From an uncultured Candidatus Binatia bacterium (GTDB lineage Bacteria > Desulfobacterota > Binatia > HRBIN30), in assembly GCA_964534275.1 (NCBI GenBank), contig CAZHQG010000010.1, forward strand, positions 6,744-70,743: a DNA stretch of 64,000 nt, read 5' to 3'. This document shows positions 367 to 17,411 of this stretch, in pieces (position 1 is the first letter of the stretch; each line of letters begins with the position of its first letter). Below the pieces are notes generated by a model, which was not told the DNA's origin, ran no database searches, and was given only the letters and a program-made list of their open reading frames with translations. Made by a program: the position numbers and the translations under genes.

Positions 367-759
367 CTAGCGCTGGGGTCTTCCGTGCTCCAACAGCCGC
401 TCGAGCTTCTGCCGAACTACCTCCGCATCCGTAATCGGCTTGGCAATGTAATCGTCGCACCCTGCAGCCAGTGCGCGTTGCTCGTCCCCTGCCATGGCCT
501 GCGCGGTCAACGCGATAATCGGAATACTCCGCCCTACTTCCGTTTGGCGAAGACGCCTCGTCGCTTCCCAGCCATCGAGGACCGGCATTTTGAGGTCCAT
601 GAAAATCAAGTCGGGAGGTTTTTCCGCCACCAAGCGCAACGCCTCTTCCCCGTTGTTCGCCTCGATAATCTCGTAATCGCCGAAGCGCTTCAGCCGATAA
701 ACCAAGATGCGCCGGTTGTCGACATTGTCCTCGGCAACCAGAATTCTCTTCCTGCTCAT
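367..759 (-). CDS. Stand-alone response regulator, single CheY-like receiver domain (about 131 aa). True start is MSRKRILVAEDN inside the longer ORF 367..1005.
   Basis: Translation MSRKRILVAEDNVDNRRILV...DLIFMDLKMPVLDGWEA...IIALTAQAMAGDEQRALAAGCDDYIAKPI carries the canonical receiver acidic pocket, phospho-Asp and Lys. The in-frame ATG at 757-759 is preceded by a purine-rich stretch. It lies downstream of, and on the same strand as, the paralog array. Confidence 0.8.
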   Translation of the reverse strand: MSRKRILVAEDNVDNRRILVYRLKRFGDYEIIEANNGEEALRLVAEKPPDLIFMDLKMPVLDGWEATRRLRQTEVGRSIPIIALTAQAMAGDEQRALAAGCDDYIAKPITDAEVVRQKLERLLEHGRPQR

Positions 760-862
760 GGGCCCAAGCTTACTAAGATTCCGTGCCGCATGCCAACCAA
801 AAAAAGGCCGCTGCCCTCGAACAGGCAGCGGCCCCTTGCAACCCAGCGTCAGCGAAGGCGCC

Positions 863-2083
863 TCAGTAAGCGACCGTATCCGCCTGAGCCTTGTCACCGC
901 GCAAATGGATGTTGAACGCGGCGGAACGAACAGCGTTGTTGTTCGGGTTCCGATGAAATTCCTCCACGATCGCGAGGATTCCGCTTCCGGGGTTCCCGTC
1001 TCCACTCAGCACCGGCCGGATCACCGTCTGTCCGGCTAGTGTTCCCTGCACACCAACATTGAACACCGAGAACGCCTCTTGTCCCGGCCGGCGGTCCAGC
1101 TGCGACAACTGAACCTCTCGGAAACACCGGAACCGTGTGCTCGCGGACATCCTTTGCTCGAACTCGTTAAACACTACGAATTGAAGCGTGTGCACGGCGG
1201 GGTTGTCGTCCACCTCTAACCGCTCGCTGCATGGAACCAACGTAATTTCGCTCGTCACCTCTCGCGCCGCGCTCAGGAGCGCATTGTCGAAGAAGTGATC
1301 CACGATGACCTGGGCGGAACATCCCGCATACTCACGATTTCCTCCCCCGAGTACCAGCGTTGTGTCATTTTGCGTGCTGCCGTCACTCAACACAGCCTGC
1401 ACACCCACGGCATTGTACGTTTGCACGTCCACTATTGCATTGTTCACACGGTAGATTGACGCATTCCCAACAAGGTCGTTGCGATTCACCGGAATGTTTG
1501 GATCGTTCCCGCTACCTACAACCTGCACACACTTCAGCTCTCCTTGGAAAATTCCCGGTGACAAAGGCGGTACGCGCCCAATGTCCTGATCTTGGCACAG
1601 CCCACCACCCGCACAGTCGTTATTGGCGCTGCAGGGAAACCCGGGCGAGGTTCCGCCCACGCAAAATCCGGTAGTCACCACACCCTCGCTCGCCCGCCAT
1701 CCAACCGGCTGATTCGCGGTCAGATTCAAATCGAAGTTGATCGCCTGGCAACTACTGAGCGTACAAATGCCACCGCCAGCGCAATCATCATTTGTCCGGC
1801 AAGCTCCGTCTCCGTCCAAGCCTCGCCCAATCGTACACCGCGGCGTCCCATCTACGTAGAAGCAATGAACAGAGGTGGCGTCGCGGCTGGTGTTTGTAAT
1901 CCGGATTACGGTGTCCATCGGTACCCCGTTGAGAGCGCCGCTCGGATCTACCACGACCTTTGGAAACACCAGGTAGCCGGCCGCCTCTTCCGTCGATACC
2001 TTCTGCCCAACAGCCGTGCTAGCCAGTAGCCCGCACGCAAGCAACGCAACCGGTAATCGAATGGCCATTCTCGCGTTCTTCAT
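863..2083 (-). CDS. Secreted protein, paralog A of an uncharacterised tandem family. Has a signal peptide and two CxxxDDCAGGG cysteine-rich inserts.
   Basis: ORF 863..2113, with start refined to MKNARMAIRLPVALLACGLLASTAVG (signal peptide, GAGGGTG RBS upstream). Shares motifs FPKVV, HCFY, NF(D/E)LxLTxxQP, PP(V/L)xPGxFxGxLxC, YNA, LVPCS, NEFEQ and AAFN with three neighbouring ORFs. Confidence 0.7.
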   Translation of the reverse strand: MKNARMAIRLPVALLACGLLASTAVGQKVSTEEAAGYLVFPKVVVDPSGALNGVPMDTVIRITNTSRDATSVHCFYVDGTPRCTIGRGLDGDGACRTNDDCAGGGICTLSSCQAINFDLNLTANQPVGWRASEGVVTTGFCVGGTSPGFPCSANNDCAGGGLCQDQDIGRVPPLSPGIFQGELKCVQVVGSGNDPNIPVNRNDLVGNASIYRVNNAIVDVQTYNAVGVQAVLSDGSTQNDTTLVLGGGNREYAGCSAQVIVDHFFDNALLSAAREVTSEITLVPCSERLEVDDNPAVHTLQFVVFNEFEQRMSASTRFRCFREVQLSQLDRRPGQEAFSVFNVGVQGTLAGQTVIRPVLSGDGNPGSGILAIVEEFHRNPNNNAVRSAAFNIHLRGDKAQADTVAY

Positions 2084-2125
2084 ATCACCCTCGCTTCGTT
2101 TGCACCGCCACATGGCACTCCCTCC

Positions 2126-3160
2126 CTAAGGCAAGCGAATCGTGGCGGACGTAGCCCCGCCAGTATGGAGGTTACTCGCTGCGCTGCCTGTCACTCCGGC
2201 TTGGTCAATGTGGAAGGACTCCGCCACGCCCACCAACCCGGTCGGTAGCCTTAGTTGCGCCTGAGCAAAGATGGTCGCGATCGCTCCACCCGTCAGCAAC
2301 GTCGACCGAAACTGCCCGGTTGTTTGCGGCGTATTCCCGAGGTCGATTGTCGTCCAGCACTGATGGGGAAATGATCCACTAAAGGGGGATTCAAATTCGT
2401 CGTACACGATGTACGACACCGTTCCGTTGCTCCGCACTCCAGCGGCAAGGTCCAGATTGCACGACAACAGCGTCAGGTTCGTCGCGATGAACGAATTCAG
2501 ATTCGCGTTGCCCAGGTCTTCGATGACCGGGTCCAGCGAGCCACGCGGACTGAAATTTAGGGTCAGCGAGCCTGGGCAGGTCTCGTATTCGCTGCCATCT
2601 AATGCCAGCGGGTTGCTGAGGCTCTGCGACACTGCAGCCACGGCGAACGCATTGTATTTGCTCACGTCGCCGGTGTTGTCATCCATGATGGTCACTTCCC
2701 CCTTGAGCCGGTTTTGACCCCGGGGATCGCCATTGGCGTCAACTTCTACACACACAAGCGCCCCTTGGAATCCGGGTGGAACAGGCGGAATCAACCCAGG
2801 GTCGAAGCCCGCGCCGGCGCTACCAAACGAATCTGTCGGGTCCACCCGGCGGCCTTGCGACACCCTCCATTGCGTAGGCTGCTGCCGAGTGAGCACAAGC
2901 TCGAAATCCACCGCGCCACAGTACCCACTGCCGTCTGGGGCCGACAGGTAAAAGCAGTGAACCCAGTTGATGGAGTTCCCGGTATTCGTGATTTGCACGA
3001 TCGTGTCGCGCTGGCCCGTGCGGACGACCTTCGGGAACATCAAGATCGAGCCCGGCCGATCCGTTCCAGATCTCGTCTGCTGCGCCTGGGAGCCGGCAGC
3101 GCCCGCGAAGACGCACAGCATTCCGATCCCCAAAAGCCAGCTCCTGTACAGTGCCCTCAT
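2126..3160 (-). CDS. Secreted protein, paralog B of the same uncharacterised family. It is the shortest member and lacks the Cys-rich inserts.
   Basis: ORF 2126..3190, with start refined to MRALYRSWLLGIGMLCVFAGAAGSQA (AAGGAGG RBS immediately upstream). Contains FPKVV, HCFY, DFELVLTRQQPTQW, IPPVPPGFQGALVCVEV, YNAF and YDEFES motifs. Confidence 0.7.
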   Translation of the reverse strand: MRALYRSWLLGIGMLCVFAGAAGSQAQQTRSGTDRPGSILMFPKVVRTGQRDTIVQITNTGNSINWVHCFYLSAPDGSGYCGAVDFELVLTRQQPTQWRVSQGRRVDPTDSFGSAGAGFDPGLIPPVPPGFQGALVCVEVDANGDPRGQNRLKGEVTIMDDNTGDVSKYNAFAVAAVSQSLSNPLALDGSEYETCPGSLTLNFSPRGSLDPVIEDLGNANLNSFIATNLTLLSCNLDLAAGVRSNGTVSYIVYDEFESPFSGSFPHQCWTTIDLGNTPQTTGQFRSTLLTGGAIATIFAQAQLRLPTGLVGVAESFHIDQAGVTGSAASNLHTGGATSATIRLP

Positions 3161-3235
3161 GGCTATCCTCCTTGCGGTCCGTCCCCGCATTGTTGACTCC
3201 TTTTTAAGTTCGCCTGGCTACTCATCGGCGCTGGC

Positions 3236-4444
3236 CTACGGCAAGATCATCAAGTCGCTCCGGCCATTCCCCTGCTGATGCAGGTCGTACGCCGCACTGC
3301 TCAGCGTCCCAGTGGGGAAATTCGCCTGCGCTACCCCGAGAAGCCCCGATCCGAGAGGCGAAACGCCACCCACCCCGCGGATTCGGGTTTGCCCCCCAAG
3401 CGTACCAGCGACGCCAGCACTGAAAATCGAGCGCGCAGGGTTGCGCGTGTCGATGCGCGATAGCTGCGTGGCGTGGAAGAGGCAATCCACAGTGCGGCTC
3501 GTCGAGAAGCGCTGCTCGAACTCGTTGAACACCAGAAACTGCGCTACCGAGCGGCCAGGTGTTTGGGTCGAGAAGTCGTTCGAGCACGGAACCAAGGTCA
3601 AGTCCGATATGTACTGAATCGCAACATTGTTCGTGATGGGATCTACTGCGCCGTCGAACATGTGGCTGAGAATCAGCACCCCGGGGCAGGATGCATAGTT
3701 GCCGCCGTCGGCTAGAACGAGCTGGCCGTTGGAAACGGGATTGCCGGTCGCCTCGAGGCCAACTGCATTATAACGAGCTGGATTTAGACCGGTTAGAATG
3801 GTGGCGTCGCCGTAAAGCTTGTCTCGGGTAGCCGTCTGGTCGGGGACACTCTGGCTGCCTCCGGTAAACTGGATGCACACCAACGCACCAATGAACGGAT
3901 CTTCTGGAACCGGGGGAATCGCGCTGCCCAGGTTGCTTTGACCGGTGTTGCAGCCGACGTTGTTTGGGCATTGCGCATCAGAGAAGCACTGGAGGTTGAC
4001 AAACGGGGCATTGCACCGAAACGGGCCTTCGAGCGGAAACTGCCCGCGCGCAAGCCCGTCGCTCGCATACCATGCCAGCGGCTGCTCTTGCGTGAGTACA
4101 ACATCGAAGTCGGTTTCGTTCCAGCTCGGCACGCACTCCCCGCGGCCGCCACAGTCCGTCGCATCGCGGCAACCAGCTCCATCGTTCGAACAGTGGCCGG
4201 TAGCGTTGATGTAAAAACAGTGCGCCTGTTTAATACCGCTCGCGTTTGTGCTGCTCAGCATCAGGCGCGTATCCGTCGGCGCTACCAACCAACGAGCGCT
4301 TGTGTCTACCACTATTTTGGGCCAAACCACGATGGACGCCGGTCGGTTCGTCGTGCTTCGGGCATTTGCAATACCAGCCATGGCCACCAATGCCACGCCC
4401 GCGCCTACTCCCATGCGGGCAGCCGCTTGCCACATCTTCTTCAT
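3236..4444 (-). CDS. Secreted protein, paralog C of the same uncharacterised family.
   Basis: ORF 3236..4606, with start refined to MKKMWQAAARMGVGAGVALVAMAGIANA (signal peptide, AAGGAG RBS). Motifs WPKIVV, HCFYINATGHC, CRDATDCGGRGEC, DFDVVLTQEQPLAW, LVPCS and FNEFEQ. Confidence 0.7.
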   Translation of the reverse strand: MKKMWQAAARMGVGAGVALVAMAGIANARSTTNRPASIVVWPKIVVDTSARWLVAPTDTRLMLSSTNASGIKQAHCFYINATGHCSNDGAGCRDATDCGGRGECVPSWNETDFDVVLTQEQPLAWYASDGLARGQFPLEGPFRCNAPFVNLQCFSDAQCPNNVGCNTGQSNLGSAIPPVPEDPFIGALVCIQFTGGSQSVPDQTATRDKLYGDATILTGLNPARYNAVGLEATGNPVSNGQLVLADGGNYASCPGVLILSHMFDGAVDPITNNVAIQYISDLTLVPCSNDFSTQTPGRSVAQFLVFNEFEQRFSTSRTVDCLFHATQLSRIDTRNPARSIFSAGVAGTLGGQTRIRGVGGVSPLGSGLLGVAQANFPTGTLSSAAYDLHQQGNGRSDLMILP

Positions 4445-4523
4445 CGCCGTACTCCTTTCGCTGCTCAACCGAGCTCGCTGCGATCTCGTCCGAATCGTCA
4501 CCATTTGCGCACCTCCGCCGCTT

Positions 4524-5795
4524 TTATGGCAACGTGATAATGTCGCCGAATCCCGAACGGCTACCCTCGTGGCGCAAGTTAAAGGCAGCGGTGCCAACCG
4601 AACCACCCAAGCTGTAGAATTCTTCCGCCACGCCCAAAACGCCCGAGGCAGGCAGGCAGCCTAGCACAGTGCCCCCAGGGCCGGTCTGCACGTTGGTGCC
4701 GCAGTCACTATGCTGGGTGCAGGAACTGCCCCTGTTCGAACCGGAATAACAAACGTTGATGGGACGAGGCGAAATGCGGATCTTCCAGAGGTCCTGGTTG
4801 CCGTTCACGAAGACCCCGCCGCCCGAAACCGGGAGGTCGGCGAGTCGGCGATTGAGGAAACAATCGAACGAGAAGGCCTCGATACTGAGCGGCTGCTCGA
4901 ACTCGTTGTATCCCACGAAACGAACACGCACAGGTGCGGGAAGGTCCTCTTCGATCAGTTCACTACAGGGAACCAACGTGAGCTCCGTGCTAATGGTGGC
5001 ACCCGTAAACGCGTCTGTGACACCCTCTGCGTTTGCCGTAAATACCAAGCTTGCTGGACAATAATTCAACTCTCCGGCACCCGTGCCGGTCCAGTTGAGC
5101 CGCAGCTCTTTATCCGTATTGAGGCCACCGCCTCCTACATCCGCATTCGCGGCTACGGTCAGGGCATTGTACTCGCTAATCTGCGCCGAACTAAGGTCCT
5201 CGATTGTCGCAGTGCCCTTCAGAGCATTCCCCGGAAACGGATCACCATCAGAGTTCATTTGGTAGCACTTGAGCTCGCCTACGAACTGGCTCCCCACCGG
5301 CGGAACGAAGGACGCCTGGTTCTGCCCAATCAACAGTCCAGGACACACGAGCTGTCCGGACGTGTCCACGGTACATTGGCAGTTCTGACCCGGGCGGCAT
5401 GGAGCCGAGGGAATGGTTGTGAGCCTCCCAGTGGACACCCGCCATTGCACAGGCTGCTGCGCGGTCAGAGCGAGTTCAAAATTCGTTGCATTGCACACGC
5501 GAATGCACTGCTCGTTCGTAGGACAGTCCGCATCGATCTCACAGCTCTCGTCTGTTGTCAGGCTGCAAGTCCCTGAGGCGTTGATGTAAAAACAGTGCAC
5601 CTGAACGAAAGAGTTTGTCCGGTTGCTCAGTTGGATAAGGGTATCGCGCACCCCATCGGACACTACCTTCGGAAAGATGATCAACGTGCCGGACTCATCC
5701 GACGTCACGTCTCCCCGTGCACCTGGCGCCGTCACCAGCCCCGCCAGCAGCACGCCTAGGCCCATCAGCCAAGGACTCCGCTTCACCAATCGCAT
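4524..5795 (-). CDS. Secreted protein, paralog D of the same uncharacterised family.
   Basis: ORF 4524..5948, with start refined to MRLVKRSPWLMGLGVLLAGLVTAPGARG (GGAGGCG RBS). Motifs FPKVV, HCFYINASGTC, CEIDADCPTNEQC, NFELALTAQQPVQW, LVPCSE and YNEFEQ. The C-terminus ends ...ITLP, like paralogs B and C. Confidence 0.7.
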   Translation of the reverse strand: MRLVKRSPWLMGLGVLLAGLVTAPGARGDVTSDESGTLIIFPKVVSDGVRDTLIQLSNRTNSFVQVHCFYINASGTCSLTTDESCEIDADCPTNEQCIRVCNATNFELALTAQQPVQWRVSTGRLTTIPSAPCRPGQNCQCTVDTSGQLVCPGLLIGQNQASFVPPVGSQFVGELKCYQMNSDGDPFPGNALKGTATIEDLSSAQISEYNALTVAANADVGGGGLNTDKELRLNWTGTGAGELNYCPASLVFTANAEGVTDAFTGATISTELTLVPCSELIEEDLPAPVRVRFVGYNEFEQPLSIEAFSFDCFLNRRLADLPVSGGGVFVNGNQDLWKIRISPRPINVCYSGSNRGSSCTQHSDCGTNVQTGPGGTVLGCLPASGVLGVAEEFYSLGGSVGTAAFNLRHEGSRSGFGDIITLP

Positions 5796-5944: not shown

Positions 5945-8419
5945 TCACGGCGAGCGTCGCACCACGATTTCCGTCACAGGCCCTGGTCGCCCGCTCGTAT
6001 CGAGTACGCGTGCAGTCAACACCGTGTCTCCCACCGCGAACTCCAAGTTTCTACTGACCACAGCGCAGAATTGCCTTCCGCTACTCGGCAGGTTCGGCGT
6101 GATCGTAGCCTCGAGGCCGTCTGGCCCAAGAGTACAGGGTTCGCTCGGGAGTTTCGGGTCGAACCGGCAAGCAAAATCCACCAGCGCATCGATTTTGTCC
6201 GGCGCAAAATCCGCAACGCTCACGCCCGGCACCCCGCCTCCACCTTGAGCTACTGGCTGCGTGTCGCAAATCGTAGTGGAACCGTTCCCTAAGTCTCGGT
6301 TGCTCAGGATTTGCAAGCTCGGGTAGATCCCCAAGCCCGGGGTCGGGGGAGGCACGCTGGTGCCAACCGTTCCTCCCCCACTTCCAGGCCGGGCTTCCAA
6401 AACGAGATAGAAACCGGAGGAACTCCCGATGCGAAAAACTCGCCGGCCGGATCCGTCGAACTCTGGAGTTGGCGTCGGCGTGCTGCCGCAGAGGCAGCTC
6501 GGCTCGTTGCACCAGTAGCAGCCGTTCGCGCGGACCACTCCGAAGAAGGTGACGATCGGGCCGGCAGCAGCACTGGTGGCCGTCGGTGTGGCGGTGATTG
6601 TCGGCGTGGCAGTGATCGTGCGCGTGAGGGTGATGGTCGGGGTGGCGGTCGGGAGCGGCGTATTCGTCGGTGTGCGCGTGGCCGTACCTGTCGGAGTACT
6701 CGTCGGGGTGGCAGTGAACGAGCGCGTTGGTGTCGGAGTACGAGTCGAAGTCGGCGACCAAGTGTTGGTGGGTGTCAGCGTCAGAGTCGGCGTGCGTGTG
6801 GCTGTAGCCGTGCTCGTCTCGGTTCGCGTAGGAGTAGCCGTGCGCGAAGGAGTCGGCGACCACGTGCTCGTCGGCGTCCACGTAACCGTCGGCGTGCGTG
6901 TGGCTGTGGCTGTGCTCGTCTCAGTTTGAGTAGGAGTAGCCGTGCGCGAAGAAGTCGGCGACCACGTGCTCGTCGCCGTCCACGTGCCAGTGGGAGTTCC
7001 GGTTGCCGTGGCGCTACTCGTCGCGGTTCGTGTAGGCGTCGCTGTAGGCGACGCGGTGGGGGACCAGCTTGGCGTGGCCGAGGCCGTTGGAGTTCCCGTG
7101 AATGTAACCGTCGCGGGTGGGCTGGCAGTTCGGGTTGCCGATGGAGACGCCGTGCCCGACGAGGTGGTCGTGGAAGTCGGCGAAGCGCTCGCCGATGGTG
7201 TGTTCGTCGCGCTCGGTAAGGGAGTTCCCGAGGGCGAAAGGGTCGGAGACGGCGTAGCCGAAGAAGATCGCGTCGGAGTCGCGGTGTTGGACCCTGTGAG
7301 CGTTGGCTCCGGCGACGGCGTCATCGAGGGATTGGGGGTATCTGACGGTGTGCTGGTCGCCGAAGCCGTGCTCGACGGGCTGGGCGGGTTCGCCGTAGCC
7401 GTGGGAGAAGGTGTAGGCGTCTCGCTCCTCGTGGCACTTGGCGTTGCCGAGGGCGTTCGCGTGCGCGTGGGCGGGATCGTCCAAGTCGGAGTCGGTGTCG
7501 CTGTGTTAGACACCGTTGCCGTTGGCGTGCGTGTGGTCGTTGCCGAGCGCGACGGCGTGACGCTGGCCGTTCCTGTAACCGTTGCAGTCGCCGACAACGT
7601 TGGTAGGGGCGACTGCGTGGACGTGGCGGTGCCCGTGGGGCTCGCTGTCGCCAAGGGCTCTACTGGAGAGGGGCTCATCGAAGGCGTAGGACTCCCCGTC
7701 GGCGTAGGTTCTGCCGGTGTATCGGTAGGTTGTGGGGGCGGGGTCACCGAGGGCAACGGGGATTCGGTCGGAGACGCCAAGCCGGTTGCTGTCGGAGTTG
7801 GACTGAGCGACGGCACCGTAGTAAACATGGGTGTCGGTGTCCGGGAAGACGTCGCGGCCGGCGTCACGCTGACGGTCGGCGACGCTGAGTGGGTCGGACT
7901 GGGAGTTGGCGTCGACGAAGGTAATTCGTTGGCCGATCGCGTGGGCGATGGTGTGGATGTGGGCGATGCGGTTGGCGTTCCAGTGGCCGACCGAGTGCCT
8001 GTCGGAGTCGAACTGCGCGTTCGTGTCGGAAGCGCGGTGACCGTACCTGTTCCGGTTGGCGTTGCAGTTGCAACGGCACTCGCTGTTCGCGTGGGAGTTG
8101 GGGTAGAGGTGTCGGTTGGAAGGGACGTTGCGGTTGCGGACGCCGATGGACTCGGCGTACCGGTCGAGACCGGTGACGGGGTTTCAGAAGGAGGAGGCAA
8201 CACCAACAACCCAGCAAACCCAATGATGTCCGCAGCCGTCGCCCGCCCGTCGCCGTTCACGTCCGCCTGCGGACAATACGGATCCTCGAAGAGCGAGGCA
8301 GCAATCGCCGCGACTTCGGCGTCGGGTATGCTATCGCAGTTCACGTCGATGCTGACCGCGCTGGCAGTACTGGCCACCAGCCACAGCGTCAGCAGTCGCC
8401 CAACCCAACTTCTTACCAT
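5945..8419 (-). CDS. Large secreted protein (824 aa). It has a signal peptide, a dockerin-like double Ca-binding module, a roughly 500-aa Thr/Pro/Ser low-complexity linker, and a roughly 200-aa Cys-containing C-terminal domain.
   Basis: N-terminus [21 protein letters not shown] is a signal peptide. It is followed by [20 protein letters not shown] and [20 protein letters not shown], which are dockerin/EF-hand-like duplicated loops. The long TPTxTPS repeat region explains the junk ORFs in the other frames. It is the first gene of the minus-strand operon and its stop overlaps the frame of paralog D. Confidence 0.7.
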
Positions 8420-8596
8420 CTTATCCCTTGTGCCCCGCGCAGTGTCCTTTCCCGTGAACCTCCGTTGATGCCTACATGCTCCAGCATTTGCAAGAAACCT
8501 CTTTTGGCGTCCGGCGGGAAACAGTCGGGGATGGTTCGCTTACGAATGCGTGGCGCTGTTGACTCGAACTGTCGCGTAGGTTCTGATGCGCGAGTG

Positions 8597-9553
8597 ATGC
8601 GGTCGGTGCAAACAGTTCTTGGTCCGGTGCCGGTGGACCAACTCGGTCTCACGTTGATGCACGAACACCTACTGATTGGCTGGCCTGGGTGGCAGTACGA
8701 CGTTGCAGCGCCACGGAAGTCCCAAAGCGAGATCGCGAAGATTTGCACCGACCGCATGCTGGAACTCAAAGCGTACGGCGTGCAAACGCTCGTGGATCCT
8801 TGCCCGATGGACCTCGGGCGCGACGTAGAGCTGATGGCGCGCGTATCCCAGGATACCGGCGTGCATATCATTTGCGCTACCGGGCTGTACAAGGAGGACC
8901 AAGGCACGCCGCCGTATTTCAAGTTCCGCGCCCAGTTTGCCGACGCCACCCATGAAATCCGCGACGCATTCGTGCGGGAGCTGACCGAAGGTGTTGGCGA
9001 CACGGGCATCAAGCCCGGCCTCATCAAGGCTGCAACTGGTGCGCATCAAGTGACCCCTTACGAGGAGATGGTCTTGCGAGCGGCAGCACAAGCTTCGTGC
9101 GCCACTGGAGTGCCGATCTTGACCCACACCGACGAAGGGACCATGGGCCGCGAGCAGCTCGACATTTTCGCTGCCGAAGGAGTGGAACTTCGCCATGTGG
9201 TCATCGGCCATAGTTGCGGAAGTTCGGACCTCAGGTATCACACCGACCTGCTCGACCGCGGGTGTTTTCTCGGCTTCGATCGCTTCGGTCTCGAGCTGTT
9301 ACAGCCAGACCGCTTGCGCCTCGCTGCTCTCATCGGCTTGATCGGCGTTGGGTTCGCAAAACAGTTGATGCTTTCGCACGACAGCGTTTGGTGTTGGCTT
9401 GGCCGCCCTCTTCCCGTACCGGAAACCGTGCTCCCGCATTGGCGACCAACGTATATTTTCACCGACATCTTGCCGCGGCTTCGCGAAGCAGGCGTGAGCG
9501 ACGCAAAGATCGAAACCATGCTCGTGGCAAATCCGCGGCGGTTTTTTAGCTGA
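8597..9553 (+). CDS. Phosphotriesterase-family (PTE/PHP-like) metal-dependent hydrolase.
   Basis: N-terminus MRSVQTVLGPVPVDQLGLTLMHEHLL matches the PTE-family consensus (G.I....LG.TL.HEH), with further His/Asp ligands downstream. The ORF opens at 8465, and the internal start at 8597 is preferred. Confidence 0.65.
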   Translation: MRSVQTVLGPVPVDQLGLTLMHEHLLIGWPGWQYDVAAPRKSQSEIAKICTDRMLELKAYGVQTLVDPCPMDLGRDVELMARVSQDTGVHIICATGLYKEDQGTPPYFKFRAQFADATHEIRDAFVRELTEGVGDTGIKPGLIKAATGAHQVTPYEEMVLRAAAQASCATGVPILTHTDEGTMGREQLDIFAAEGVELRHVVIGHSCGSSDLRYHTDLLDRGCFLGFDRFGLELLQPDRLRLAALIGLIGVGFAKQLMLSHDSVWCWLGRPLPVPETVLPHWRPTYIFTDILPRLREAGVSDAKIETMLVANPRRFFS

Positions 9554-14794: not shown

Positions 14795-15976
14795 ATGCCC
14801 ATTCCCGAGTCGATTTTCAGGCCGTTCAATCCGTCCGATGCCGAGCGGAGCGACCGAGCCGCCGGGGATCGTCAGCGACACCGAGAAAAGGTACGCCAGT
14901 CGATCCGCGAAAACATCGCGGACATCATCGCCGAGGAGGCGATTATCGGCAAAGATGGCAGCCGGATCATCAAGGTGCCCATCCGAGGCATCAAAGAGTA
15001 CCGGTTTGTGTACGGCGAAAATACACCCGGAGTGGGACAGGGTGAAGGCGAGCTGGAGCCCGGGCAAGTCTTACGCAGCGGGGAAGGAGAGGGAGAAGGG
15101 CCAGCCGAGCGACCGGGGGATCGACCCGGCGTGGATTACTACGAAACCGACGTCACCCTGGATGAACTCGTCGAAATCATGTTCGAGGATCTCGAACTCC
15201 CGGACCTCGAGCGGCGCAAACTGCGAGAGCTACCAGCGCTGCGAATCCTCAAGCGCAAAGGGTACCGCAGTGCGGGCCTGCGGGTGCGCTTGGACAAGCG
15301 GCGCACGGTGAAGTCCAAGGTGCGCCGGCGTTTAGCGTCGCAGCGGCGGACCGAACTGGGCACGGGCGAACGGTTCCCGTTCCACGAAGACGATTTGACT
15401 TACCGCCACATGGTGCCGGACGTAAAAGAGGAATCCAACGCCGTGGTGCTGTGCATGATGGACACCTCTGGCTCCATGGACACGATGAAGAAATACCTCG
15501 CCCGCAGCTTCTTCTTTCTCCTCTTCCAGTTCGTCCGGGCCAAGTACCGGAACGTCGAACTCGTCTTTATTGCCCACCACACGGAAGCTCGGGAAGTTTC
15601 GGAAGAAGAATTTTTCCACAAAGGAGAATCCGGGGGCACGTTCATTTCTTCCGCGTACCAAAAGGCGTTGGAGATCATTCAGGAACGGTACCATCCTTCG
15701 CTTTGGAACATCTACGCGTTTCACTGTTCCGACGGCGATAATTTCGAGTCCGACAATCCCACGGCACTCAAGTTGGCCGAAGAACTTTGCCAAGTCGCCA
15801 ACCTGTTCGGATACGGAGAAATCAAGCCCCTCGGGTCGCGATATTACGAAAATTCCATGCTTCAACTGTTCCGCCGCATCGAGGCGGACAATTTCCATAC
15901 GGTTTTAATCGAGCGGAAAGAAGACGTGTGGCCGAGCTTTAAAGCATTTCTCGCCCGCGACCGCGTTCGGGAGTGA
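14795..15976 (+). CDS. YeaH/YhbH family protein (DUF444, vWA-like).
   Basis: ETDVTLDELVEIMFEDLELPDLERRKLRE and the C-terminal vWA-like region match UPF0229. It occupies the conserved position between prkA and spoVR. Confidence 0.8.
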   Translation: MPIPESIFRPFNPSDAERSDRAAGDRQRHREKVRQSIRENIADIIAEEAIIGKDGSRIIKVPIRGIKEYRFVYGENTPGVGQGEGELEPGQVLRSGEGEGEGPAERPGDRPGVDYYETDVTLDELVEIMFEDLELPDLERRKLRELPALRILKRKGYRSAGLRVRLDKRRTVKSKVRRRLASQRRTELGTGERFPFHEDDLTYRHMVPDVKEESNAVVLCMMDTSGSMDTMKKYLARSFFFLLFQFVRAKYRNVELVFIAHHTEAREVSEEEFFHKGESGGTFISSAYQKALEIIQERYHPSLWNIYAFHCSDGDNFESDNPTALKLAEELCQVANLFGYGEIKPLGSRYYENSMLQLFRRIEADNFHTVLIERKEDVWPSFKAFLARDRVRE

Positions 15977-15977
15977 C

Positions 15978-17411
15978 ATGCGTTCCTACGACCTTCACGA
16001 CCTGATCGAGTGGGACAAGCGCATCCGCGACAAAGTGGCTGCGTTCGGGCTCGACTGTTTCCCTCAGGAGTTCGAACTTTGCGACCACAATCAAATGCTG
16101 GGCTACATGGCGTACTCTGGAATGCCTTCCCACTACCCGCATTGGTCGTACGGCAAAGCGTACGAGAAACTGAAAACCCTGTACGATCACGGTGTTGCCG
16201 GGCTGCCTTACGAAATGGTGATCAATTCCAATCCTGCACTTGCCTATCTCATGCGCGACAACACGCTTGCCCTACAAATCCTGACCATCGCGCACGTGTA
16301 CGCGCACAACGACTTTTTCAAAAACAACTTCACGTTCCAAAGCACGCACCCGGAGTACGTCATTGGGACGATGAAAAGCCATGGTCAGCGGGTGCGCTCC
16401 TACATCGAGTCGCCCAGCATCGGGATCGATGAGGTCGAGCGGGTCCTCGACGCCGCTCATGCCCTTGCGCTGCAGTGCCGACGCAATCTCGCCGTACGCA
16501 AGCTCAGCGAGGAGGAACAACGGCAACGCAAGCTGGAAGCCGCCAACCCTCGGGAAGATCCGTTCGCCAAGGTGCACAAACGGCAGCCAATCTCCACCCC
16601 AGATCTACACAAGGTGCCGCTCGAACCCGAAGAAGACTTGTTGCTCTTCATCCGCGACCACAATCCGTACCTCGAAGAATGGCAGCGCGACCTGCTGACG
16701 ATCGTGCACGAGGAAGCACAGTACTTCATCCCGCAAATCGAAACGAAGATCATGAACGAGGGCTGGGCCACGTTCTGGCACAAGCGCATCCTCGAGAGTC
16801 TGGAGCTGCCCCAGGATTTGCACTTGGAGTTTCTCGTGCGTCACAACCAGGTGGTGCGCCCGATCCCAGGAGGGCTCAACCCTTACCACATCGGGTGGAA
16901 GATCTGGGAAGATCTTTACCGGCGCTACGAACACCCCGAGCCGGATGAAGAAGAAAGCTTGGAATCCGGGGTTCGTTCTGGCCTGGAAAAAATCTTCTCT
17001 GTGCGGGCAGCCGATCGCGACGCTTCGTTCCTGCGCCGCCACCTAACCGAGAAGCTCGTTCGCGAGTTGCGTTTGTTCGAGTACCGCGTTCGAGGAGGAG
17101 ATTGGGTAGTCACGGAAGTTGCCGATGACGAGGGGTGGCGGCAAATCAAGGAAACACTGATCCGCTCCGTGGGCATGAACAGCGTGCCGGTCATCAAGGT
17201 GGAGGATGCAGACTTCGGACACCAACGGACATTGCTGCTCGTGCACGAACACGATGGGCGCGACCTACACCTGGAATACGCAGAAAAAACTCTCGCCTAC
17301 GTTCACCAACTGTGGGGCCGGGACGTTGCCCTGCAAACGATCGTGAACGGGAAAAAAGTTCTCCTGCAGTACGGCGAACGTGGGTTCACCACGAGGCAAC
17401 TGACCCGTTAA
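15978..17411 (+). CDS. spoVR: SpoVR family protein (YcgB-like).
   Basis: MRSYDLHDLIEWDKRIRDKVAAFGLDCFPQEFELCDHNQMLGYMAYSGMPSHYPHWSYGK is the canonical SpoVR N-terminus. Confidence 0.85.
   Translation: MRSYDLHDLIEWDKRIRDKVAAFGLDCFPQEFELCDHNQMLGYMAYSGMPSHYPHWSYGKAYEKLKTLYDHGVAGLPYEMVINSNPALAYLMRDNTLALQILTIAHVYAHNDFFKNNFTFQSTHPEYVIGTMKSHGQRVRSYIESPSIGIDEVERVLDAAHALALQCRRNLAVRKLSEEEQRQRKLEAANPREDPFAKVHKRQPISTPDLHKVPLEPEEDLLLFIRDHNPYLEEWQRDLLTIVHEEAQYFIPQIETKIMNEGWATFWHKRILESLELPQDLHLEFLVRHNQVVRPIPGGLNPYHIGWKIWEDLYRRYEHPEPDEEESLESGVRSGLEKIFSVRAADRDASFLRRHLTEKLVRELRLFEYRVRGGDWVVTEVADDEGWRQIKETLIRSVGMNSVPVIKVEDADFGHQRTLLLVHEHDGRDLHLEYAEKTLAYVHQLWGRDVALQTIVNGKKVLLQYGERGFTTRQLTR

Follow-up and report, generated by a model that had tools for sequence, protein, structure and literature searches.

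One question raised by the stretch of Candidatus Binatia DNA analysed here (64,000 nucleotides (nt) of contig CAZHQG010000010.1, hereafter the window) is how four neighbouring paralogous genes, named D, C, B and A, came to differ in the Cys-rich loops of their products. The Binatia are a phylum found globally that has no cultured member. In the initial annotation of this DNA the differences were ascribed to duplication followed by modular gain or loss of disulfide-stabilised loops, under diversifying pressure. Our results favour a history that is in itself ordinary, with old paralogs, lineage-fixed loop insertions and purifying selection: the array would consist of ancient pairs, each formed by one O gene and one E gene, whose four-Cys modules are fixed by lineage and kept by purifying selection, a conclusion that we regard as likely. 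A hetero-oligomeric extracellular role of these proteins, either in glycan binding or as structural components, is proposed tentatively. The reading as a whole, in which the evolutionary and structural part is blended with the functional one, was given a probability of about 55%. The four genes are co-oriented in the minus strand and are transcribed in the order D, C, B, A, as follows (cysteines are those of the mature part):

4524-5795, minus strand: paralog D, 423 amino acids (aa), O class, first gene of pair 1, 18 cysteines
3236-4444, minus strand: paralog C, 402 aa, E class, second gene of pair 1, 13 cysteines
2126-3190, minus strand: paralog B, 354 aa, O class, first gene of pair 2, 6 cysteines
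863-2083, minus strand: paralog A, 406 aa, E class, second gene of pair 2, 14 cysteines

Multiple alignment of the four proteins extended from end to end, with 31-36% identity and 48 invariant columns. This indicates that they are true paralogs, as the initial annotation had proposed, and that the inserts are not frame artefacts. The lack of any Cys-rich insert in B and its shorter length, previously estimated as about 60 aa, were confirmed (48-69 aa shorter than A, C and D). A Sec-type signal peptide was recognised by inspection on all four proteins. The D gene has a GGAGG ribosome-binding site 7 nt 5' of its start codon, and its product is identical to the public protein P0001. The open reading frame (ORF) of A spans positions 863-2113 and its likely start is the ATG at 2083; public gene calls begin at 2113, which gives 416 aa.

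In order to define the organisation of the family, genomes were scanned (one genome per species), which provided 198 family loci, 80 of which, from approximately 35 genomes, were retained. Co-oriented tandem arrays were present at every locus fetched, with two genes in 35 of them, three genes in 15, four genes in 31 and six genes in one. Proteins were assigned to classes by sequence clustering that was blind to gene position, followed by class-specific hidden Markov models. Three sequence classes were obtained: class E, which holds C and A, the O clusters, which hold D and B (D with a margin of 157 bits), and class T. The array patterns were O-E (33), O-E-O-E (27), O-E-T (9) and O-E-O-E-O-E (1); eight arrays were cut by contig ends and there was one exception to the alternation. 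Following this strict alternation, the window array resolves into two O-E pairs, D-C plus B-A, and is two tandem copies of an ancient O-then-E two-gene unit. The distance matrices of the O and E proteins were correlated (r = 0.83 over 54 units; maximum of 0.14 in the permutations), indicating that each pair duplicates and diverges as a unit. Fusions of an O and an E copy in one chain, in either order, were also found (P0153, P0122 and P0178). The T proteins of the O-E-T cassettes (loci L016, L018, L022, L034, L042, L060, L061, L067 and L072) have about 349 aa, lack Cys inserts and share a conserved C-terminus, VLPxxF.

The family is large and is essentially restricted to Binatia. A word-indexed search retrieved at least 1257 family matches, and an exhaustive search at least 2099 clusters at 50% identity (E up to 1e-3); all of them were unnamed and without a Pfam domain. 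Nearly all of the 80 retained loci belong to metagenome-assembled genomes of Binatia, or to bins that carry the label Deltaproteobacteria or Myxococcales; a genome holds several loci, and the closest relatives of the window array are in hot-spring Binatia bins such as HRbin30, N3C12 and KatS3mg077. None of the four proteins had an above-threshold match in Pfam, NCBIfam or PHROGs, and the family profile gave zero matches against the PDB sequences at E values up to 10. Among the titles and abstracts retrieved in literature searches on Binatia/Binatota, none describes the family, which together with its paired organisation appears to be undescribed. It constitutes a sizeable body of unannotated exported proteins. 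Two residues are almost invariant across the family, Lys42 in strand one and Asn224 where the first half ends, and His73-Cys74 is conserved. Rare members (P0196, P0202, P0214 and P0240) are fused to beta-propellers (Lactonase, Vgb_lyase/NHL), to CarboxypepD_reg, to DUF4215/Dicty_CTDC Cys repeats or to EF-hand-like C-terminal tails, the DUF4215 match lying near the threshold (26.6 bits, with a cut-off of 27).

The Cys-rich segments that distinguish the paralogs are listed below. Two of those in D, namely the second-site segment and the C-terminal insert, had been missed in the initial annotation.

1763-1801, minus strand: motif 1 of A, CRTNDDCAGGGIC
1595-1633, minus strand: motif 2 of A, CSANNDCAGGGLC
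4133-4171, minus strand: motif 1 of C, CRDATDCGGRGEC
3950-3988, minus strand: motif 2 of C, CFSDAQCPNNVGC
5505-5543, minus strand: motif of D, CEIDADCPTNEQC
1748-1837, minus strand: insert 1 of A, CTIGRGLDGDGACRTNDDCAGGGICTLSSC, four-Cys module plus Cys112
1595-1663, minus strand: insert 2 of A, CVGGTSPGFPCSANNDCAGGGLC, four-Cys module
4133-4192, minus strand: insert 1 of C, CSNDGAGCRDATDCGGRGEC, four-Cys module
3950-4015, minus strand: insert 2 of C, CNAPFVNLQCFSDAQCPNNVGC, four-Cys module
5493-5567, minus strand: insert 1 of D, CSLTTDESCEIDADCPTNEQCIRVC, four-Cys module plus the Cys equivalent to Cys112 of A
5343-5399, minus strand: second-site Cys segment of D, CRPGQNCQCTVDTSGQLVC, four cysteines with a different spacing
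4656-4751, minus strand: C-terminal insert specific to D, CYSGSNRGSSCTQHSDCGTNVQTGPGGTVLGC, four cysteines
2903-2956, minus strand: short loop of B replacing insert 1, CFYLSAPDGSGYCGAVDF

The motifs described initially in A (two), C (two) and D were all found where they had been placed. Five copies of C-x5-C-x5-C are present in the four paralogs, whereas 2000 residue shuffles gave 0.06 on average and never more than 1; elsewhere in the window, ORFs of at least 90 aa contain one copy, located in a shadow ORF. The C-terminal insert of D, CYSGSNRGSSCTQHSDCGTNVQTGPGGTVLGC, holds the same C-x2-x-x-D-C signature. Each insert takes in one further upstream Cys, which gives modules of four cysteines with the spacing C-x(6-11)-C-x5-C-x5-C. 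Five cysteines (74, 185, 255, 285 and 320 in the numbering of A) are invariant in an alignment of 172 sequences from the 80 loci. Position 112 is Cys in 25% of this alignment and Trp in most of a second alignment of 116 sequences. Residue 112 is Cys in A, with Cys91 of B and Cys101 of D as its equivalents, and Trp in C, the equivalence being set by a fixed distance of five residues ahead of an invariant Phe. The codon for residue 112 of A lies at window nt 1748-1750, and most E-class proteins, C included, have Trp at this point. The cysteines are thereby accounted for as 5+1+4+4 = 14 in A, 5+1 = 6 in B, 5+4+4 = 13 in C and 5+1+4+4+4 = 18 in D.

Four cysteines per insert, together with a Cys content of 0, 2, 4 or 8 at site 2 throughout the family, are what is expected of self-contained two-disulfide modules, and each four-Cys module most likely forms two disulfides. 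Since all four proteins have Sec-type signal peptides, disulfide-stapled loops on exported proteins are a reasonable reading. The co-occurrence of cysteines (C83 with C101, r = 0.96; C95 with C107, r = 0.94) gives a weak hint of 1-3/2-4 pairing within the modules, weak because all four cysteines usually occur together. The number of cysteines is odd in C and in most E-class members, so that one of the invariant cysteines presumably stays unpaired or packs against the Trp. An intermolecular O-E disulfide was considered for this odd count and was dropped as the default, because the Cys/Trp swap at position 112 explains the parity and D, B and A have even numbers.

An alternative for these cysteines is that the C-x5-C-x5-C motifs and the His-Cys dyad constitute Cu/Zn-type metal sites in periplasmic metal-handling proteins. 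Methylotrophic and alkane-oxidising metabolism needs metals, which was counted in favour of such sites. Binatota are predicted methylotrophs and alkane oxidisers (PMC8262859). Metal binding would also agree with the conserved His73-Cys74, with the five invariant cysteines and with the odd Cys number of C; however, exactly four cysteines per insert and site-2 counts of 0, 2, 4 and 8 are the signature of paired disulfides, B keeps the conserved core despite lacking the motif, the Cys/Trp exchange at 112 accounts for the odd count of C, and there are no metal-transport genes among the neighbours. We therefore consider metal sites quite improbable and disulfide-stapled modules the preferred reading of the inserts.

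The distribution of the modules among orthologs was then compared with that in the window. Module 1 is present in approximately 104 of the 106 E-class proteins. Proteins of the general O class usually have no complete module (0-2 extra cysteines in 34 of 36), the B-type orthologs never have inserts and always have the short loop, and no insert is present in class T. The D-type orthologs have module 1 and, in 16 of 16 cases, the C-terminal four-Cys insert, so that the D lineage always has three modules; the four Cys columns of the C-terminal insert have a frequency of 9% and co-occur with r = 0.93-1.0. Orthologs of A with 62-94% identity keep both modules, with only substitutions and 1-residue indels between the cysteines. 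The module complement is thus fixed in each orthologous lineage and kept by purifying selection. Since the orthologs of each paralog in other Binatia keep the same loop complement, the variation within the array is neither recent nor at the level of strains. The original proposal of duplication with modular gain or loss of disulfide loops therefore stands in part: the modules are self-contained and the changes belong to deep time, but they are not recent or strain-level events, and in this unrooted comparison they may reflect either a loss in B or a gain in class E and in D.

Another important question is whether these loops evolve under diversifying selection. Ratios of nonsynonymous to synonymous substitution rates (dN/dS) were calculated by the method of Nei and Gojobori (NG86) between the window strain (identical for protein D to public record L001) and strain L087, with dS values of 0.36-0.68. 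The dN/dS values were 0.09 for D, 0.10 for C, 0.08 for B and 0.135 for A, which fall within the range of the flanking genes (PTE, 0.025; receiver, 0.03; sigma-54 activator, 0.12; RsmI, 0.17; DUF1232, 0.38). No difference was observed between loop codons (0.07-0.13) and core codons (0.08-0.115). The diversifying pressure initially suggested was therefore not supported by this comparison.

Surface proteins under antigenic or phage-driven diversifying selection, with Cys loops rapidly gained and lost after a recent duplication, would explain why the proteins are exported and why the inserts are located in loops. At larger distances, where dS is saturated, loop dN (0.18-0.24) is about twice the core dN (0.09-0.13), which this explanation would also accommodate and which fits relaxed constraint on exposed loops. 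With the closest strain, L089, dN/dS reaches 0.3-0.4, and 0.93 in the loop codons of A; these ratios rest on few changes (19-42 non-synonymous ones), and the same ratio (0.50) is seen in the DUF1232 gene of the flank. A further observation on the side of diversification is that, in the comparison with L087, the array shares about 88% nucleotide identity between strains and the flanks about 95%, roughly a twofold divergence, and that dS is 0.36-0.68 for the array, the receiver and the DUF1232 gene, approximately three times that of the outer flanks (0.13-0.21). The divergent block comprises positions 1 to about 5950 of the window (L001 9300-16300 compared with L087). This excess is mostly synonymous, which points to older alleles or recombination and not to adaptive amino-acid change, and suggests a recombined or older, long-maintained allele block as opposed to positive selection. 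Since the paralogs are only 31-36% identical, orthologs across Binatia share the insert complement, and dN/dS is 0.08-0.135 with no loop effect where counts are large, rapid diversification is an unlikely explanation, and ancient pairs under purifying selection are preferred. The DUF1232 protein is itself fast-evolving, with dN/dS of 0.35-0.5 and 75% identity where its neighbours have 92-98%.

Structures were predicted for A and B with AlphaFold2. The model of A (predicted local distance difference test score, pLDDT, 91.7; predicted template modelling score, pTM, 0.88) and that of B (pLDDT 82.9; pTM 0.82) are all-beta with two sandwich-like halves, and the residues of the N-terminal signal peptides have low pLDDT (about 45-65) in both. 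Each of the four proteins is read as two beta-sandwich halves preceded by a signal peptide of the Sec type. Both modules of A are predicted with pLDDT above 92 as a bridge, a three-residue helix at (D/N)-D-C and then a strand; within insert 1 (1748-1837) pLDDT exceeds 94, with the short helix at the DDC residues. The C-terminal endings agree with the initial description (ATIRLP, DLMILP, DIITLP and ADTVAY; LP in B, C and D, and ADTVAY in A). The last beta-strand of the prediction, [DE]-x-I-x-[LIV]-P, closes with this LP, and 0-4 residues follow it in other members of the family, which indicates that LP is not a terminal sorting tag.

The models of A and B each matched TM1070 (1NC7) in Foldseek with a probability of 1.00 and a template modelling score (TM) of 0.72-0.77 on the target (E = 4e-5 for B). 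TM1070 is the ortholog, in Thermotoga, of the transducer of Anabaena sensory rhodopsin (ASRT), and its superfamily is predicted to be sugar-binding, with domains in dyads or tetrads (PMC2739507). The ASRT/TM1070 sandwich is the only solid structural match of the two predicted models. Members of the ASRAH superfamily (DUF1362/ASRT; 1NC7 and 2II7) would be expected to have an eight-stranded beta-sandwich superposable on TM1070. Sugar binding is predicted for a single face of the ASRAH sandwich, and the hallmarks of the superfamily are a Trp where strand 1 begins, a His-x3-Cys pocket within strand 2 and, closing that strand, an Asn (PMC2739507). By analogy, the arrangement of ASRAH domains in multiples may correspond to the pairs of the present genes, and a nearly invariant Asn of our family (N64) closes the second predicted strand (56-64), as the ASRAH Asn ends strand 2. 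In contrast, the Trp and His-x3-Cys ligand residues of ASRAH lack equivalents in position: the His-Cys of our family is an adjacent dyad in strand 3 and there is no Trp in strand 1. The proteins, of about 350-420 aa, have two sandwich halves, are secreted and disulfide-rich and are encoded by heterotypic gene pairs.

The second-ranked Foldseek match of B was the Pleurotus ostreatus lectin POL (6T1D and 6KC2; probability 0.69-0.85), a sugar-binding lectin of similar size (about 340 aa). POL has a two-domain beta-jelly-roll architecture. The global TM of this match was 0.17-0.18 with about 10% identity and no mappable sugar-binding residues, and POL was not in the top list of A. Other whole-chain matches in PDB and BFVD, to arrestin/VPS26, transglutaminase barrels, pilins and picorna-like capsids, had low TM and were not trusted. 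In their short C-x(n)-C-x(n)-C pattern and their Asp/Asn and Gly residues, the modules recall those of TIGR04201 (a Myxococcus Cys-rich repeat), DUF4215, DUF7107 and EB; A scored below threshold with these repeat families (TIGR04201, 10.6 bits against 25; DUF7107, 16.4 against 24.6; EB, 16.8 against 24.3), and the window modules differ from them in being single insertions in sandwich loops and not tandem repeats. Overall, the proteins are most likely of a general kind, that of secreted beta-sandwich binding or structural proteins, here as a lectin-like double sandwich.

Secreted beta-sandwich proteins encoded in paralogous arrays are typical of pilus operons, and the four proteins might be major and minor subunits of a pilus- or fimbria-like fibre held by strand exchange or covalent cross-links. 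CfaB, CfaE, CupB6, Spy0128 and LrpA were indeed among the weak Foldseek matches, and the near-invariant Lys42 and Asn224 would in principle permit an isopeptide bond. However, those matches had TM below 0.2 and low probability, the A and B models are complete sandwiches, and no chaperone, usher, sortase or secretin-type genes were found among the conserved neighbours. Moreover, no LPXTG, membrane anchor or charged tail is present at the C-termini of the paralogs (B, C and D stop at LP and A at VAY). A fibre of this type has, in our estimate, little probability, and lectin-like double sandwiches remain the preferred description.

Cassettes of the D-C-B-A type form a conserved locus present in single copy, and the genes around it encode a Pro/Thr-rich protein, a receiver, DUF1232, a sigma-54 activator, PTE and RsmI. 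The elements next to the array in the window are the following:

5945-8419, minus strand: dockerin-like Pro/Thr-rich gene, 824 aa, upstream of D and co-oriented with it
802-837, minus strand: terminator-like hairpin, GC-rich 15-bp stem followed by a T-run, 26 nt past the stop codon of A
367-759, minus strand: 130-aa CheY-like receiver, stand-alone, conserved just downstream of this cassette type (70-93% identity)

The product of the 5945-8419 gene begins with a signal peptide and a dockerin-like module of two Ca-loop repeats. A Pro/Thr-rich linker of some 570 aa follows, and the C-terminal domain, of some 190 aa, contains Cys. The N-terminal module and the C-terminal domain are kept in about 10 loci, and a Pro/Thr/Ser-rich gene precedes the D-C-B-A cassette in the same strand in 10-12 genomes. 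The protein scored 11.9 bits with Pfam Dockerin_1 (PF00404; gathering score 22.9), with two visible D-x-N-x-D-type loops that are conserved in its orthologs. One or two genes for large secreted proteins often lie ahead of the two-gene O-E cassettes; in the two loci whose proteins were scanned, L031 and L065, these contain PD40 repeats, dockerin-like loops, C-x5-C-x5-C modules and a cohesin that passes the gathering cut-off with 31.3 bits. The secreted-protein genes were located at 2132-6322 in L031, 227-4629 in L065, 1012-4805 in L025 and 1044-3713 in L046, and in three of these four loci (L065, L025 and L046) they are followed by a UDP-glucose/GDP-mannose dehydrogenase gene.

Cohesin- and dockerin-like modules are reportedly widespread outside cellulosomes. 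The cassettes resemble such non-cellulosomal assemblies in that the upstream partner opens with two dockerin-like Ca-loop repeats (DVNCDS...) and continues with a long Pro/Thr linker, and in that an above-cut-off cohesin and dockerin-like motifs occur 5' of two-gene cassettes. They differ from them in that no cohesin was found with the window cassette, the four paralogs have no dockerin and there are no glycoside hydrolases nearby. The domain fusions and the dockerin-like and cohesin neighbours point to an extracytoplasmic, multi-protein setting.

The same neighbourhood bears on whether the O-E pairs are two-component (binary) toxins or effectors. The strict two-gene organisation, the many paralogous loci per genome, the all-beta fold and a weak Foldseek listing of Cry5B would all be compatible with toxins, but the loci lie in conserved chromosomal synteny with housekeeping genes, no immunity, secretion-system or mobile-element genes are nearby, there were no PHROG matches and purifying selection is at the level of ordinary genes; toxins are accordingly a very improbable explanation. 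GlnE, class IV aminotransferase and UDP-glucose dehydrogenase genes that recur near the cassettes were read as locus synteny and not as functional partners, and likewise the glutathione synthetase, arginine decarboxylase and MsbA-like ABC transporter genes, as synteny of orthologous loci.

Under the reading that we prefer, ancient O-E pairs with lineage-fixed modules, the O and E partners would work as a hetero-oligomer outside the cytoplasm. The four-Cys modules sit in loops at sites 1 and 2 of the N-terminal sandwich, to which D adds one in the C-terminal half, and they would form rigid surface protrusions. The proteins may be binding or structural components, most plausibly carbohydrate-binding, of an extracellular assembly that in this cassette type would include the upstream dockerin-like Pro/Thr-rich protein. 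The alternating, co-diverging pairs and the lineage-fixed modules provide concrete predictions, namely O-E heterodimers, a disulfide map and glycan binding.

Several observations weigh against this reading. No annotated homolog of the family was found in the searches, and the function proposed is one that we infer. Contact between O and E is suggested indirectly, by gene order, co-divergence and fusions in the sequences, and some of the O-E fusions could be artefacts of gene calling in metagenomes. The disulfides are predicted from cysteine counts and co-occurrence, and C has an odd number of cysteines. The dockerin-like protein is upstream in 22 of the 57 loci with enough flank. The superposition on TM1070 has a root-mean-square deviation of about 5 Å, and the half of the protein that matches is not specified; the whole-chain Foldseek matches of A and B had TM below 0.2 throughout. 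Homology to ASRT by sequence was rejected, with no ASRT match in the Pfam scan of the four paralogs at E up to 1 and a probability of 0.2% in the hhalign comparison of the family with 2II7 plus 1NC7; the likeness is structural only, which makes ASRT the closest fold and not the family. Finally, the high dN/dS with strain L089 mentioned above also counts against it.

It is conceivable, although rather doubtful, that O and E form obligate heterodimers, and that these polymerise into an extracellular scaffold or surface layer specific to Binatia, or dock into it by way of cohesin-dockerin-like partners, with the four-Cys modules as glycan- or partner-binding tips. If this were true, the family would represent a cell-surface assembly system not described before and confined to the phylum, each genome having several specialised cassettes (O-E, O-E-T and O-E-O-E).

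With regard to transcription, the hairpin located between A and the receiver gene makes it probable that the receiver is not co-transcribed with the array. A scan for the sigma-54 consensus gave 29 matches against 36 expected, none of them 5' of D, and no tRNA genes or Rfam families were detected in the window. The DUF1232 and sigma-54-dependent activator genes past the receiver lie beyond the left edge of the window (15444-16124 and 17726-19399 in L001). In five public records (L001, L002, L003, L087 and L088), opposite-strand ORFs of 508 plus 126 aa, or of 637 aa, have been called across the Pro/Thr-rich gene, which in L001 corresponds to positions 7328-9247; these calls look like a mis-annotation caused by the low-complexity Pro/Thr region.

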